Assembly: GCA_048213135.1 (NCBI GenBank)
Contig: PS015022.1
Span: 333,004 to 397,003, forward strand
Length of the DNA stretch: 64,000 bases
DNA from: Reclinomonas americana ATCC 50394
Taxonomy: Eukaryota
Reading direction: 5' to 3'
The translations under genes were made by a program, and so were the position numbers. The notes under the pieces are model-generated. The model was not told the origin of the DNA, searched no databases, and was given only the letters and a program-made list of their open reading frames with translations. Below, one piece after another: positions 2,874 through 21,560 of the stretch (the first letter of the stretch is position 1; each line of letters begins with the position of its first letter).

Positions 2874-3338
2874 TCATCCCCGCCCCTTAAACTTGTACCC
2901 CACTGCATCGCAGTGACAGCACAAGCCGGCGAACCATCGCACGGTGGCGACCGGGAAAGCAATCGGGCAGCACAGCACCTGGCAGGTGCCAATCACCTGA
3001 ATGTCGAGCCCGTGGCACCCCTTCACTCGATCGATCGTCACGATCGATGGCTCCGGCACGCCGATGCAACAGCAACAGCGTGGATCCGAAGCCGACATGC
3101 AGCACTGACAGCAGAGGCCGGTGAGGCCGCAACAACATGAGTACGCGCGGGCGCACTTGTTGCCGGCGTCGCAGTCTTGTCCGCACGAGCAGATGAGACG
3201 CTCACAGTCGACTGCCACTGTGTGGTTGTCGTAACAGCAGGTTACTTTGGCAGCCGCCTGATCAGAGGCGTTGTGCCTCGTGTCTTTGCCCGCACGACCG
3301 GCGGTGCCACAGCAGCACCAAATGTCACGCAGCTCCAT
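2874..3338 (-). CDS. Small cysteine-rich protein with C-terminal hydrophobic segment, copy 1
   Basis: MELRDIWCCCG...QVLCCPIAFPVATVRWFAGLCCHCDAVGY. Aligns over its full length, in frame, with 19157-19609. Confidence 0.75.
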   Translation of the reverse strand: MELRDIWCCCGTAGRAGKDTRHNASDQAAAKVTCCYDNHTVAVDCERLICSCGQDCDAGNKCARAYSCCCGLTGLCCQCCMSASDPRCCCCIGVPEPSIVTIDRVKGCHGLDIQVIGTCQVLCCPIAFPVATVRWFAGLCCHCDAVGYKFKGRG

Positions 3339-3343
3339 GAAAT

Positions 3344-14345: not shown

Positions 14346-16715
14346 CTTGAATTTCGCGATCAGCATGAATACCTCCACCGTTGCCTGAATCACTCGCGAC
14401 ATTGCCGACAAAGGAGGTGTTGTACATGGTCTGGCGGATCGGCTATCTCTCGTTGAAGTGAGTCCAACATTCGATTGACTTCTTCAGTGGGAGCCACAAT
14501 CAATACTCACGGATTCAGCACTGAAGTATGTGAGCACTGCGCCGCCACCAGCGAGTGCACTTTGCGAACTGAGACTGGTCCCGATTCCAGTTGTGTTCCT
14601 CCCCCCGTTTCCGCAGTCTGACACCGCATTGCGTGCAAAGGTGGCATGCGCGACCTGCGCGCGGGAAGTCATGAATCAATATGATGATGATCAGCGCGAT
14701 GGCGGCCAAAACAGAGAACGGGCTGCACCTCCACTGCTTGTTGAATCGAGATTGCCGCGACGGCGCCGCCGCCACACGCAAAACATGTTGCGTCGCCACA
14801 CGGGAAGCCTATTGCGTTGGCGCCGGACTTGAAGGTCCCAAGCCCTCCGTTGCACGCATTGGAGACCGAGTTGCCGTCAAACGTGCCCTCGGTCACCTTC
14901 GTCGCCAGTCAGCCCCAGTCAATTACGTGAGATGCCTACAAGCAGCATACCTGCATAGAAGCGCCATTCTGGAAGCGAACGGCTCCGCCAGAACACATGT
15001 AGCCCGACGTGCCGCTGAATACGAACGAAGGACCGTTGCACAAGTCGGTGATACTGTTGGCAGAAAACGTGCTGCGTTGGAGCTGGCTTCAAGAGTGAGA
15101 AGGCGCGGATGACTGCAAAAACTGTGAGCTCTATGCTCACCAACATGGTCCTTTGTGCAGATGCAGCCGCTACCGCCCACACCGCCCCACCACCGCTGTT
15201 GACGCCACCCGTGCCAACACCAGTACATACTCCTTGGCCTGCTGGGCACGAGAACCCGTTGGAGCTCGACGACACCGTGTTGTAGGAGAAATCCGATCCC
15301 ACGATGTTCAGAACGTCAGACTGAGCCACGTACAGCGCACCGCCGCCCACTTGACTGGAACCGAAAGTGTTGTTTTGGTTCCCATTGCCGCAATTCGTCA
15401 CTTGATTGTCGGACCACTTGCTGTTGGAGACCGTCACGTTCACTCGGCTGCCGTCGCTGACGGACACAGCACCGCCCCCCACATTGTCACGAAGTAGACC
15501 CGCAACGGCATTGTTGTTGAAGTCGCAGGTGTCGAGAGTCACGTTGAGAGATGTCGAGCTCGCTCCGAACACGTACACGGCACCGCCACCAACACCACCT
15601 GTGGATGCCGTATAGTTTCCACTTCCAGTCACAGTGTTGCCGACAAATGAGGAGTGCGTGAACGTGATAGCCGACGAGACGCCGGAGGAGAGCACAACGG
15701 CAATCGCAGCACCAGCAGCGTCGGTACCAGATTTGCTGCAATTGAAGAACGTGCCATCCGCCACGCTCAGGTGCACCACTTGTCCCTGCACAAGCAGTGC
15801 CGAACCCGCATAACGAGTCACCACGGCTGTGGTGGCCCGGTGGTTCCGGAACGTACAGCCAGAGATTGACACAGTGGTCGATGTGCTGGCCGTGAGCGAC
15901 ACAGCGCCGCCCGACAGCGAGTTGACGAACGAGCAGTTGGTGAGAGTCACCGCGTTTGCACCAACAAGGGTGTTCGCGGGAGCGGTCCACACGACGAGTG
16001 GTGCCGTCTGTGACCCTCCGTTGATGCTCACGCCTGTCATGTGGAATTCGGCGGCCCCCAGGACGCTGAACACGCTGTTGGTGGTGGAGGAGGGCGATGC
16101 ACCCACCAGATTGATGGTGACTGCACTGGCATTGACAGTGACATTGCGATCTGTGTGCACGTGTGCGTGTGCGTGTGCGACACGTGAGACAAGACGAGAG
16201 GAGCGCACGAGGACCACGAGAAGCACCTGCGCACAGCAGCTGTGTCGTCGAATCGTACTCGCCACTCGCCATCCACACCACGAGAGACCACGCGGGTGAG
16301 TTTGCAGGAAACATTTGCGTCGTCGAGCAGGATGATACTGCCTGCGCAAGGGTGCATGGTTGCGAGACGATCGCACCACATGTGGCACTGCCGCTGCCAC
16401 TCGGTGACACAAACACTGCGCAGCGTGTGCGTGAGTGCGTGCGTGATAGATTTGACAGAACACAACGAATCCGACGACAGTGAGCACCACCGGAGCGTAC
16501 GGAGCGCAGGCGTGTCCTCTCTCCATGCAACACGTACAAAGACACTGCGACGTACCTTCACACGTGGTTGGTGAGCTCATCGCTTGCGGTGCCGCCGCGA
16601 GTTGACGAGCCCAGCCAACGTCACGAATTGCGAGGCCGAGTCCAGCGCACCACATTAACACCAAAATCGGCACCACGCACGCCAGTCTGCGCCGTGGCGC
16701 ACTTGGCGAAACCAT
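5208..16715 (-). CDS. Very large surface protein: signal peptide, Pmp-like GGA(I/L/V)/FxxN beta-helix repeats, Cys-rich linker, multi-pass TM domain, cytoplasmic tail; many exons
   Basis: MVSPSAPRRRLACVVPILVLMWCAGLGLA; VFVSPSGSGSATCG..PC cap; many FxxN..GGGA motifs; CPAGLFY..CQECSEDKYS..CRQCP; several hydrophobic helices at 5750-7200 (e.g. FGSLYEQYRP). Last exon joins in frame to TGA at 5208. One gap (14217-14236) lies inside. Confidence 0.85.
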
Positions 16716-16934
16716 GCGTGGTGGTGGCTGCAAGTGGACACACGCGAAGCAAGGCGGACAATGCATTGGAGCAATGCATTCTGGCTGCGCATGCAAATGC
16801 AAATCGCAGCGCTGCGCGCATATGCTTTCTTTCAGTGGAACGAGCAGTCACCAACAAACGGGGGCTTTTACTCAAACAAAACAACAACAATTCATTCACC
16901 AACTAACAAGCGACAGCTGTCTTAAACACTTAAG

Positions 16935-16956
16935 CTTCATTCACCACATTCCAATA
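16935..16956. repeat. Left arm of 22-bp inverted repeat CTTCATTCACCACATTCCAATA
   Basis: Exact reverse complement of 19057-19078. Confidence 0.95.
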
Positions 16957-19056
16957 CTTGAGTTTGGAATTTTCGCCTCGTCGACTCCAAACCCAGTCAG
17001 ACAAGGATGGCGACGAGCCGCCGGAGATCCGCCCCTGCTCCACGACGCCCAACACGTGCAACACAACGCCCCCCACAACGCAACACACACGCGCGCGGAT
17101 GAGTGTGGTGGTGGTGACGAAAGTCGCCGCCCCTGCAGCCTTGCCAGCAGAAGCAACAGCCGACGCTGGACTATTGCCTGCAGGAGCCCCACACGCACCC
17201 GCCAGTGTGCACATGGCCGCGACCCCAGGATCCACCTCTGACAACTTACCCGCCAAATCTGACCGTTACGCGCTTGCCTGCGTTGCAATGGTGCGGTGGA
17301 CCCCCTCGCCTGTCGCCGACGACGCCTTGCCGAATGCTGTGCATGGCCACTCCGACAACAACTCTGTGCCAAGTGCCTCGAGCCCATCGACACTCCGTGA
17401 GCCTCAAATCCGCTTTGCCAAGGATCCCTCCATCTGTGTTCACGTATCCGCCTTTGCTGATGATCGCCACGTGTGTCTCTCATCGGTGCAGCAAGCGCAG
17501 ATNNNNNNNNNNNNNNNNNNNNNNNNNNNNNNNNNNNNNNNNNNNNNNNNNNNNNNNNNNNNNNNNNNNNNNNNNNNNNNNNNNNNNNNNNNNNNNNNNN
17601 NNNNNNNNNNNNNNNNNNNNNNNNNNNNNNNNNNNNNNNNNNNNNCCGCAGCCACACTAGCAGCGAAGCACAGATTCAGCGTAGACTCCTACACTGATCC
17701 AGTCACCCAGAAGATCACCACGATTGGCCGTCTCCCCGACAACACGACTGTCTTTCCGTTCACTGAGAAGTTTCTGAAGTCTGTCAACAAGTTTCAAGGA
17801 AAACAGAAGTCCGAGAAGTGGAAAGAAGAGGTGGCAGAAGAAAACGGAGATGTGCACCCGAGAAAGTCAGGTCGCTTTGCTTTCACTTACCGTCACGGTG
17901 CTGGTGCACACGACTGCTTGAAAATCGGTCGTGGTCTGTACCCGAAGCAACAGTCTTTCGCCTTGAAACTGCGCACCAACTCCCTCTATCTCAACGCTAC
18001 ACGCGCGAAGAATAGCCAGAACTATACCCCTCACATGGCTAGCTGCAAAGTGTGTAACAAGGGACAGGAAGAGACAGTGGCGCACCTCTTGTGCTGGTGT
18101 GAGGCACAGAAAGACAATGTGACGAGTCGGCACAACAGAGTGGCAACGATCTTGCACGAGGAACTCAGAGACTCAAGTGTGCACAGCGAGGCAGTCTTCT
18201 ACGCCGAGAAAGTACCGCAGAATTTGTTGCCAGCAGGAGAAGACCAGTTGGCACAGTTGAAACCAGACATTGTGGCTGTGACTCGAGCAGGTCCAGGTGT
18301 CGATGCACAGGTGACGAAGGTGCTGATTGTGGAGCTCACCGTGGCGTATCCCAAGGACGAAGATGCGCTGCAGAAGGCGTACGACCGCAAGTTGGTGAAG
18401 TATGCCGAGCTGGTGGAGAAGATCCGATCGCACACTGAANNNNNNNNNNNNNNNNNNNNNNNNNNNNNNNNNNNNNNNNNNNNNNNNNNNNNNNNNNNNN
18501 NNNNNNNNNNNNNNNNNNNNNNNNNNNNNNNNNNNNNNNNNNNNNNNNNNNNNNNNNNNNNNNNNNNNNNNNNNNNNNNNNNNNNNNNNNNNNNNNNNNN
18601 NNNNNNNNNNNNNNNNNNNNNNNNNNNNNNNNNNNNNNNNNNNNNNNNNNNNNNNNNNNNNNNNNNNNNNNNNNNNNNNNNNNNNNNNNNNNNNNNNNNN
18701 NNNNNNNNNNNNNNNNNNNNNNNNNNNNNNNNNNNNNNNNNNNNNNNNNNNNNNNNNNNNNNNNNNNNNNNNNNNNNNNNNNNNNNNNNNNNNNNNNNNN
18801 NNNNNNNNNNNNNNNNNNNNNNNNNNNNNNNNNNNNNNNNNNNNNNNNNNNNNNNNNNNNNNNNNNNNNNNNNNNNNNNNNNNNNNNNNNNNNNNNNNNN
18901 NNNNNNNNNNNNNNNNNNNNNNNNNNNNNNNNNNNNNNNNNNNNNNNNNNNNNNNNNNNNNNNNNNNNACTGTTGGAGAAGATTTATCTATGTGTTTTTA
19001 TATTGTTGGTGTGCCAATGGTCATCGCCGGCAAGGGATTTGTGGACATTTGCGCAT

Positions 19057-19078
19057 TATTGGAATGTGGTGAATGAAG
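19057..19078. repeat. Right arm of 22-bp inverted repeat TATTGGAATGTGGTGAATGAAG
   Basis: Exact reverse complement of 16935-16956. Confidence 0.95.
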
Positions 19079-19156
19079 TGTTTTGTTTGTAGTAGAGTTG
19101 TTGTTGTTGTTGCTCCATTTATGCCATCTCCCTCACTCTTCGAAGCTTCTCTCTCC

Positions 19157-19609
19157 CTACCTATCATACCCAATCGCATCACACGTGCAGCACAGACCGC
19201 CAAGCCACCGCACGCTGGCGACCACAAGTGCAACGGGACAGCACAGCACCTGGCAGGTGGCCACCATCGGCAGTGCCACCTTGTCGCAACCCTTCGTTGT
19301 GTCGACTGTCACGATGGATGGCTCGGGCACGCCGATGCAACAGCAACCCCGCGGATCGGAGGCCCCCGCACACAGCATGCAGCAGCAGGCGACAGGAGTA
19401 CCCACACAACACGAGTACGTCCGCGCACACTGATTGCCATCGCATTTTTGCCCACAAAAACAAAAGAGGTGTGCGAAATCAAATGCGATGGCGCCATTGT
19501 CGTAGCAGCATGGTACGTCGGCTGCATCTGCCGAAGAAGTGTAGTGTCTATCGTCCTTTCCCGCACGACCGGCCTTGCCACAACAGCACCAAATGTCACG
19601 CAGTTCCAT
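19157..19609 (-). CDS. Small cysteine-rich protein, copy 2
   Basis: MELRDIWCCCG...QVLCCPVALVVASVRWLGGLCCTCDAIGY, paralog of 2874-3338. Upstream 19800-19910 also matches about 3455-3580. Confidence 0.75.
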   Translation of the reverse strand: MELRDIWCCCGKAGRAGKDDRHYTSSADAADVPCCYDNGAIAFDFAHLFCFCGQKCDGNQCARTYSCCVGTPVACCCMLCAGASDPRGCCCIGVPEPSIVTVDTTKGCDKVALPMVATCQVLCCPVALVVASVRWLGGLCCTCDAIGYDR

Positions 19610-21061
19610 GGAAATGCAGCAGATGTCTGCACTGCGCGTGTGTGTGAGAGAGAAGCACAGAGAGAGAGAGGGTGAAAGGGAAGGAGGAGGAGGAGAATGA
19701 GGAGGAGGAGGAGGAGGAGGAGGAGGAGGAGGAGGAGGAGATGATGCTGGCTCGTTACCTTTGCTCACACTCGACAACACTATGAATCTATCGCGTCGTT
19801 CGTCGGATTTTATGTTTGTGTGTGCGCAGGACAACATCGTGACAGCGTGCTTCTCTCGAGCTCATGCAACGTGGCATGTCCACTGCATCAGCGCACCCTC
19901 CATGATGCAGCAACAATACAAGTCGGTGCGAGGCGAAAACTGCTTGAAAGGACGATGTTGTCCTCCAATCGCGCGTTTCATCATTCAGCGACCATGGGCG
20001 GAGGCCACTCACAACCGGCGACGCAGACCTCCACTGAGATCTTGACGGGTGTGTGTGCACACTCATCCATGCTCACTCGCTCTCACTCGCTCACTCGCGT
20101 CGCCACAAGTCACGTCATGCCCGATCCTTGAGCAGGTTCGACACAGTGCTTCCTCTCTCTCTCTGTCTCTCTTTCCACTCATCGTGAAAGCTCGCAGGTG
20201 GATCCCAACAGTGACACGCACGACGACCAGCAAGCAACGGTGAGCGACACACGTCGCGCGCTGTATTGTGTTGTTGCTTTTTCACTCACACCATACACAG
20301 TCGGCTGCCGCAGAGGGAGCAGACGCACTCAAGTCATTATGAAAAACTTGTTCTCGCAGTGCACTCCCACACAATAAAAGGCCGCCGCAGCAGTGTGAAA
20401 CATGAGCATGAGGGGAAGAAGAAGACGTCGTCGTTGTTGTGTTTTCACAGTCCATTTCATCGCGTTTTCTTTCGTGAAGCATGGGGAGCTCGCACTCGCA
20501 ACATGGTGACGGCTGGATCGGGCCAAACCAGATCCAAGTAGGTGCGCGCAGACAGAAAAGAGTGAGCTGTGCAGCTGTGCCTTTAGATGATTGATATCGT
20601 GCGCAGACTGCACGGCGACCTTCCGCCAGACTGACGACAAGGTGCGCTGCTTGTGTGTCAGTTGTTGAGTGGCAGTGTGTGTGCGCGCTCAGTGGTGCAT
20701 GTGCAGGTGGGCTGCGGTGGTGAGCAACCAGCAGTGCCGGTGAGTGATCGAACATGCATAATGTCGGTGCTTGTGCGTGTTGCGGATCACTGACATGTGC
20801 GTATGTGTGTGCGTGTGAGTGAGCAGACGGCGGCAACAGAGGATGCTTTGTGAGACGAATAAACACCGACTTCTCGCAGTCTCATTTGTTGTTGTTGTTC
20901 GCCGACGTGTTGTCTAGTTGCATGAACACAGTGGGAGAGACTGTCGCGCCTTCAAAGCACTATGCCATTGTAGAGGGAAGGTGAGGGAGAGAGAGCTGAA
21001 ACGAACGACTTCCGCACAAGCCTGTCCTACTCTTGTGTTGCTTGGATCGTTGTTGCTCACC

Positions 21062-21130
21062 ATGGGCAGCGAGCAGTCGGCACCGGGCGACGTGACCGCT
21101 GGTGACATCTCCACTGGTGTGTGTGTGTGT

Positions 21131-21200
<70 letters not shown>

Positions 21201-21560
21201 GTGTGTGTGCGTGTGCGTGTGTGAGAAGTGTTGTATCACTCCCTGCTCTCATCTCTCTCTCTCTGTGTTCTCACACTCGCACAACAGCTGGTCTTTCGCT
21301 CGCCATGACTGCGTACGACGAGACGGTGCGAGGCTTGCTCTTTGTCTGTGTGTTTCATCGCGTCCTCATTCGTTCAATGCTTATCATCATCTTCATCATG
21401 TCAGCCTCCTGCAATGCGCGACGCGGCTGCTGTGCATGATGCGGATGCGCTCCGAGCTGGTGAGTGTGTGAGAGAGAGACACACACTTAGAGATTGGTGT
21501 GCGTGTATGTGTGCTGACTTGTGCGTGTGTGAGTAGATGACGCTGCGCACCATCGCATGG
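21062..21560 (+). CDS. Short multi-exon hypothetical protein or pseudogene with an N-myristoylation-type start
   Basis: MGSEQS (MGxxxS) followed by in-frame GT-AG exons AGLSLAMTAYDET and PPAMRDAAAVHDADALRA. 3' end unresolved. Confidence 0.4.

Follow-up and report, generated by a model that had tools for sequence, protein, structure and literature searches.

A defective retrotransposon copy with a restriction-like endonuclease module, and a surrounding 22-nt inverted repeat, on a draft scaffold of Reclinomonas americana

Among retrotransposons without long terminal repeats (non-LTR) that encode a restriction-like endonuclease (RLE), Genie 2 (GilD) of Giardia belongs to the RLE lineage; its degenerate copies are reportedly flanked by inverted repeats, and these repeats are said to reach ~170 bp and are known from many copies. 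Inverted sequence is also produced by twin priming in L1 elements, where priming on both DNA strands during one event leaves the left part of the insertion inverted relative to the right part, the inverted piece being derived from the RNA interior. Elements of the NeSL, Utopia, HERO and CRE groups have a single open reading frame (ORF) in which the reverse transcriptase (RT) is followed by a CCHC motif and then by the RLE (Kojima and Jurka, 2015; PMC4640811). Most RLE elements have a specific target, with microsatellites among the targets (PMC4640811), and 5′ truncation is inherent to the synthesis of complementary DNA (cDNA) starting at the RNA 3′ end (PMC13580325). Here we describe an element of this general type in a stretch of 64,000 nucleotides from Reclinomonas americana ATCC 50394 (assembly GCA_048213135.1, contig PS015022.1, positions 333,004 to 397,003), the whole of which is referred to below as the window. 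The element is accompanied by an exact 22-nt inverted repeat (16935-16956 and 19057-19078, with 2100 nt between the arms). As matters stand, what the fragmented assembly offers here is a defective retrotransposon copy of the ordinary kind, and we read the inverted repeat, with a probability of about 0.4, as opposed copies of the 3′ terminus of the element, the left ones very short, and not as terminal inverted repeats (TIRs) of the transposase type.

The window is a draft eukaryotic scaffold (57.4% GC, 9 N runs in 64 kb), and the locus is distributed over three contigs: contig A ends at 17502, contig B occupies 17646-18439 (794 bases), and contig C begins at 18969, with assembly gap 1 (17503-17645, 143 N) and assembly gap 2 (18440-18968, 529 N) between them. 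Contig B can be read on the + strand through 264 codons without a stop, and on this strand it carries, in order, the linker end KLRTNSLY (17966-17989), a CCHC knuckle of the form CX2CX9HX4C (18044-18100), an RHN motif (18128-18136), a KPD motif (18260-18280), the segment IVELTV holding E229 (18326-18343) and a K..KY motif (18374-18403). The linker end is the counterpart of KXRINALP, and the knuckle spacing exceeds by one residue the CX2-3CX7-8HX4C pattern, both as published (PMC5678591); the CCHC knuckle (IAP/gag-like) that is looked for in RLE elements is thus present. A HMMER scan of 1.84 billion representative proteins returned 30 relatives at E ≤ 1e-3 (best E 5.8e-15, 36% identity), and in 8 of the 14 relatives that were scanned against Pfam (14 of the 30) RVT_1 lies N-terminal to the stretch resembling contig B. 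Eleven residues (C133, C136, H146, C151, R161, H162, P206, D207, K248, K251 and Y252) are invariant between contig B and 19 shorter matches; these residues correspond to the CCHC knuckle, to RHN and to the endonuclease core PD...K..KY. The Pfam model zf-RVT matches contig B at E 0.0047 with 18 bits, which is under its cut-off of 27.5.

Structural comparisons point in the same direction. In a sequence search of the PDB solely R2 retrotransposon proteins fall below E 0.05 (9nl2, 0.0071; 9nl3, 0.032; 9dou, 0.044). The AlphaFold2 model of contig B has a mean predicted local distance difference test (pLDDT) score of 72.8, and the 10-residue blocks from residue 101 onwards, comprising the knuckle and the endonuclease, score 71-95. 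When this model is compared with the PDB by Foldseek, the top five matches are again R2 proteins (9nl2, 9nl3, 9dou, 8ibz and 8iby, E 2.6e-5 to 2.4e-2), the next match having E 0.92. Together, the invariant residues and the model place a PD-(D/E)XK-type endonuclease C-terminal to the knuckle. From the invariant residues, the PDB sequence matches and the Foldseek matches, contig B is the C-terminal module of an R2-superfamily RLE non-LTR element with intact catalytic residues. A preliminary description of this DNA had spoken of an RLE-type non-LTR retroelement at 16873-19089; the name is well founded for the 794 bases of contig B, given its relatives with RVT_1, its invariant residues and the R2 folds, and this is the only part that is demonstrably retroelement. 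One of the relatives is a turtle protein annotated as 'uncharacterized' and the others are unnamed metagenome proteins, so that the clade cannot be read from their names. The single-protein scan of viral contigs gave no relative, and a word-based search of contig B among longer proteins gave 2014 candidates, none of them at E ≤ 1e-3. The endonuclease module is intact, and none of its relatives among the 1.84 billion representative proteins exceeds 36% identity, so that it points to a little-sampled RLE lineage in a microbial eukaryote.

Upstream of the RLE part and on the same strand, an FADD motif (17453-17464) is located at the very end of contig A. Among 3000 dinucleotide shuffles of the contig A piece, 3 contain the pattern [FY]ADD on the + strand (14 of 3000 for the looser [FY][AVIMLC]DD), and the residues beside FADD (VHVSAFADDRHVCLSS) match the pattern in the relatives; judged from these residues and counts, the motif is probably not due to chance. 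No RT motifs are found upstream of it in the inner end of contig A (16957-17502, + strand, 53-70% GC per 60-nt bin). Pfam, including RVT_1, finds nothing in 16934-17500 at E ≤ 1; tblastn with the 30 relatives matches contig B in 29 cases, the best match in 16934-17502 having E 0.12 and lying on the opposite strand, and no tblastn match of the RT-bearing relatives is located there; and an RT profile built from 8 RT-bearing relatives aligns only 20 residues at FADD (-4.1 bits), the remaining five frames being without any match. The RT motifs due 35-100 residues upstream of FADD are thus absent from contiguous sequence, and the stretch 3′ of FADD would fall in gap 1. Because the motifs preceding FADD are missing from contiguous sequence, the copy is defective and cannot move by itself. 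Whatever the gaps hide, it is either 5′-truncated just before FADD or internally deleted.

For 189 codons the frame containing FADD (16934-17502) is free of stops; its first ATG is at 17099, and a stop codon (16931-16933) directly precedes the left arm of the inverted repeat. This frame is fully open back to the arm in 26 of 3000 shuffles. GC content in 60-nt bins is 58-70% at 16994-17413 and 53% at 17414-17473, as compared with 40-58% in contig B, and tblastx of 16934-17502 against the window yields short low-complexity matches only. The evidence on 16957-17400 therefore points both ways, as the high GC content and the lack of homology fit host DNA, whereas the open FADD frame fits an element ORF that begins at the arm.

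A mechanical ORF list includes a long ORF (16934-19072) that crosses both N gaps. The frame common to contigs A, B and C is an accident, because it is set by the lengths of the N runs, and gap sizes are estimated. Of the ORF with FADD, CCHC and RLE motifs that the preliminary description reported, the motifs are present but the continuity is not, as two N gaps lie inside. If the path from FADD to contig B is colinear with the relatives, gap 1 would measure an estimated ~700 nt and not 143. Gap 2 should, to judge from the relatives, which extend beyond the end of contig B, hold the stretch from the final tens of ORF codons to the beginning of the 3′ untranslated region (UTR). The end of contig B (18410-18423) and the start of contig C (18970-18983) have 13 of 14 nt in common (CTGGTGGAGAAGAT and CTGTTGGAGAAGAT) and then diverge; this likeness, though it falls exactly at both edges of gap 2, is probably chance. 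Long simple repeats occur at 2360-2552 ((GGTAC)n/(GTAC)n/(GGTA)n/(GA)n, adjoining a gap), at 19640-19742 ((GAG)n) and at ~20960-21235 ((CA)n/(GT)n), and are probably part of the reason why the assembly is fragmented.

Given this fragmentation, contig B could be a collapsed-repeat contig misplaced between contigs A and C, or contigs A and C could be misjoined or misoriented, in which case the arms would not surround one element at all. The occurrence of two gaps within 2.2 kb in a window with so many N runs, the shortness of contig B, which has the sole clear element homology, and the disagreement between the estimate of ~700 nt and the 143 N of gap 1 would all agree with such an artefact. However, FADD has the same strand as the RLE part and lies upstream of it, and the pair of 22-mers exists whatever the place of contig B, because the arms are in long contigs with unique host sequence. 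We consider an artefact improbable on balance.

The inverted repeat itself is well beyond chance, and in this respect the preliminary description was correct: two matches of the 22-mer were obtained in 0 of 100 shuffles, and no further match with up to 3 mismatches exists in the window. Both arms lie inside the long flanking contigs, which also carry host genes, and the left arm is 690 nt upstream of 17646, the first sequence with demonstrable element homology. The left arm (16924-16956, - strand) consists of the exact 22-mer and, on its outer side, of AAACA (16924-16928) and a 6-nt CTTAAG insertion. The right arm (19057-19113, + strand) begins with the 22-mer, which includes TGGTGAATGAA at 19067-19077, and continues into a T/G-rich tail (GTGTTTTGTTTG..(GTT)5). 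Between gap 2 and the right arm, the start of contig C (18969-19056, + strand, 38-40% GC) presumably represents the end of the 3′ UTR, and the sequence directly inside the 22-mer differs between the arms. An outward extension of the repeat had been described as well; five more bases (AAACA) do match past the CTTAAG insertion, but the extension is weaker than was proposed, as gapped local alignment of the arms scores 45 versus 44 for the 22-mer alone (500 shuffles: mean 18, maximum 33). Alternatively, a 33-mer of the right arm (19057-19089) corresponds on the left to 11 nt (16873-16883) plus the 22 nt, 51 nt apart; no other copy of this 33-mer is found within the window. A second alignment, to 16879-16901, scores 34, just over the maximum of the 500 shuffles.

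The only exact matches to the 22-mer in the metagenome collection, found in two contigs (L001, positions 905-926, and L002, positions 835-856), were put down to coincidence in view of the great size of the collection. Both contigs represent a single bacterial gene for a GH10 xylanase (PF00331, E 2.4e-25), where YWNVVNEA is the stretch encoded by the 22-mer; they are 94% alike over their best 620-nt stretch, and their likeness to the window is confined to 22-25 nt, or 9-11 residues. In the window, one strand of the 22-mer (16935-16956 and 19057-19078) encodes YWNVVNE(A/V).

Part of the repeat, TTCATTCACCA, is present three times in the window, at 16891, at 16936 and, on the - strand, at 19067. 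The expected number is 0.06, three copies were seen in 0 of 100 shuffles, and allowing one mismatch adds no site in the window, so that the third related motif noticed earlier is real. Copy 1 (16873-16923, - strand) is composed of AAGACAGCTGTCGCTTGTTAGT, TGGTGAATGAA (16901-16891) and the T/G-only tail TTGTTGTTGTTTTGTTTG; it is unique in the window and sits inside, or adjoining, the tail of the left arm. In copy 2, TGGTGAATGAA (16946-16936, - strand) precedes GCTTAAGTGTTT, after which copy 1 starts directly, and in copy 3, TGGTGAATGAA (19067-19077, + strand) is followed by GTGTTTTGTTTG...(GTT)5. T/G-rich sequence is therefore found 3′ of all three TGGTGAATGAA copies, each on its own strand, and GTTTTGTTTG is common to copies 1 and 3. 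Copies 2 and 3 share 11 further bases upstream and then differ immediately (CTCAAG versus GCGCAT), while the sequence upstream of copy 1 is unlike either. This arrangement is the one expected of retroelement 3′ ends that carry, or enter, a simple T/G-rich repeat. As had been stated before, reading of the sequence of the locus finds no poly(A), and no direct target-site duplication is seen next to the candidate boundaries 16924/19086, 16935/19078 and 16873/19113.

These observations can be accommodated if the locus is a defective R2-superfamily RLE copy lying in the spacer between two - strand host genes, namely one gene with beta-helix repeats, which ends near 16100-16766, and another that is Cys-rich (19157-19612). 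By analogy with its family, the element would have been inserted by target-primed reverse transcription, in which the endonuclease nicks the target and RT copies the RNA from its 3′ end; because reverse transcription starts there, the 3′ end is retained in every copy and the 5′ part is frequently lost. If the 3′ terminus of the element is taken to be ...TATTGGAATGTGGTGAATGAAG plus the T/G-rich tail, the locus would contain this terminus three times: one instance closes the long + strand copy, and the other two, on the left, are very short - strand pieces of 22 nt and ~11-33 nt, so that the apparent TIRs would be two 3′ ends facing outward. The short pieces may be separate, extremely 5′-truncated insertions into the same T/G-rich target, or may have resulted from abortive priming on the opposite strand within the same insertion event. 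One of the two options left by the preliminary description, an element that targets or copies a TTCATTCACCA site in inverted fashion, comes closer to this reading, for which, as said, we would not claim more than the probability given at the outset.

Additional sequence that bears on the locus comes from a rhizosphere metagenome (run X1), in which 5% of sampled words were found. Compared at 80% likeness, 12 short contigs of depth 2-3 match, and the pieces mentioned here are among the matches listed. None of these contigs bridges a gap, and neither the uncovered parts nor the lack of a joint carries weight. Host parts are matched with few differences, for example at 16193-16353 (5 differences), 16643-16743 and 20482-20672, and at 18346-18439, within the endonuclease, there are 10 differences and 2 gaps; a low-depth close relative of the source organism, with a related element, thus seems to live in the sampled rhizosphere. 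A contig of 151 nt holds 16881-16923 (43 nt, 2 differences) and is unlike the window on either side, a hint that, in the relative, the 43 nt around copy 1 act as a repeated unit of their own. Another contig matches the 3′ piece at 18990-19044 (2 differences, 1 gap) and from 19045 is unlike it for 97 letters; this suggests either an element end short of the 22-mer or copies that end differently in the relative. All of these pieces are hints only, because they are single low-depth contigs in which reads are cut at masked simple repeats.

Several of these points weigh against opposed 3′ termini. The 3′ UTR contig of the relative stops matching 12 nt before the right arm, a result that has to be read with the low depth and metagenomic origin of such contigs, and their possible truncation at masked simple repeats, in mind. 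The 189-codon open frame (26 of 3000 shuffles) is easier to reconcile with an element body extending to the arm than with host DNA between two separate insertions. Furthermore, 22 nt is very short for a truncated insertion, and the proposed 3′ boundary comes from a single locus.

The stop at 19044/19045 is also where a nested arrangement would place the 3′ end of the element. In this case a pre-existing host inverted duplication, or the ends of a MITE-like (miniature inverted-repeat transposable element) insertion of ~0.5 kb (~16924-17390 plus 19045-19086), would have received a 5′-truncated RLE element, with a 5′ junction near 17390 and a 3′ end near 19044. The absence of RT motifs upstream of FADD is what 5′ truncation predicts, GC content drops from 58-70% (16994-17413) to 53% (17414-17473), close to that of contig B, and the arms belong to long contigs with host genes. 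Nevertheless, neither candidate boundary shows a target-site duplication, the 22-mer and the 33-mer recur nowhere else in the window, the FADD frame stays open through what would be host or MITE DNA, and the interior is GC-rich and without a transposase. Indeed no transposase is found at the locus, where RLE is the sole recognisable domain; what would be shared with a TIR DNA transposon or a MITE is the TIR-like 22-mer, without duplication at the candidate boundaries. We regard a nested insertion as somewhat unlikely, while keeping it in view.

Another possibility is an RLE family bearing true TIRs, in which the 5′ end of the RNA would be the reverse complement of its 3′ end over 22-33 nt and the present copy would have been internally deleted with both ends kept. 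Such a family would explain why the arms enclose everything that is element-like, and why an open frame containing FADD (3 of 3000 shuffles) starts at the left arm, right after the stop at 16931-16933. It would, however, need an in-frame internal deletion of RT motifs 1-4, and it would leave the third, partial copy and the T/G tails held in common to be explained separately. In addition, 16994-17413 is unlike contig B in GC content, the copy of the relative diverges before the right arm, and one copy only is available. We find this reading very unlikely. The statement that the element is bounded by TIRs, made in the preliminary description, is accordingly unproven: the arms are in flanking contigs, no RT lies between the arm and FADD, and there is one copy.

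The surroundings of the locus appear to be intergenic. On its left, a beta-helix repeat ORF (14919 to ~16100, - strand) consists of repeated GGGAV/FxxN-like units in which Pfam finds nothing; the ESM Atlas relates it to right-handed beta-helix/Chlamydia-PMP-repeat proteins in bacterial clusters with a score of 0.91-0.92, which is a lead only, and the sequence upstream of the ORF hints at introns. On its right, a Cys-rich ORF (19157-19612, - strand) with CC/CCC runs belongs to no Pfam family, and the right arm lies ~80 nt beyond its stop codon. A paralogue of this ORF is found at ~2896-3340 (- strand), its best BLASTN stretch being 78% identical over 94 nt, with further likeness recognised by reading. 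Further away, an intron-less WD40 beta-propeller ORF of 365 codons (921-2018, + strand) matches WDR3/WDR5-like Pfam models, and its best relatives, at ~42% identity, are mostly bacterial or unnamed; the protein collection does not contain its exact sequence. An Rfam search of the whole window at gathering thresholds gave 0 matches (no ribosomal RNA (rRNA), U2 or spliced-leader RNA), and ARAGORN found 0 transfer RNAs (tRNAs) in it. At E ≤ 10, Rfam matches in 16500-19500 are limited to Prion_pknot (E 7.1), with no hepatitis delta virus (HDV)-like or other ribozyme or structured RNA. As there is no RNA gene in the window, the copy lies in an intergenic spacer and not in an rRNA, small nuclear RNA, spliced-leader or tRNA gene. 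A second copy of the element is not found in the window.

With respect to known systems, contig B has the same C-terminal module as the R2 proteins (helices of the linker, a CCHC knuckle and an endonuclease of the PD-(D/E)XK type), although the identity in the fold alignments is just 17-22%. R2 in the strict sense inserts at a 28S ribosomal DNA site and has an N-terminal zinc-finger/Myb region; here the window holds no rRNA, and 16934-17500 no Pfam domain. Likewise, the U2, spliced-leader or tRNA gene 3′ flanks used by Utopia, CRE-SLACS and NeSL are not present in the window, as judged by Rfam and ARAGORN. The T/G-rich, (TTG)n-like sequence by each copy of the motif would fit a microsatellite target or tail of the kind known from some NeSL, Utopia, HERO and CRE families. 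No clade can be assigned, since clades are defined by the RT domain and this domain is missing here. Differently from L1 twin priming, it is the extreme 3′ end that would have been inverted, and no element homology is found on the - strand of 16957-17502.

The available parts of PMC2875222 and PMC1950533 make no mention of inverted repeats of Genie 2, and no description of a TIR-bounded RLE element was found in the open-access literature. It is conceivable, but hardly probable in our view, that the present copy belongs to a family in which each insertion carries an inverted version of its own 3′ terminus at its 5′ edge, either encoded by the RNA or produced by target-primed reverse transcription on both strands. 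If inverted ends are indeed regular in the family, this would bear on second-strand synthesis and 5′ joining in LINEs (long interspersed elements) that branched early. Compared with Genie 2, the repeat described here measures 22-33 nt in one copy; a retroelement family that regularly gains TIR-like ends would, if real, be a second case beside Genie 2.

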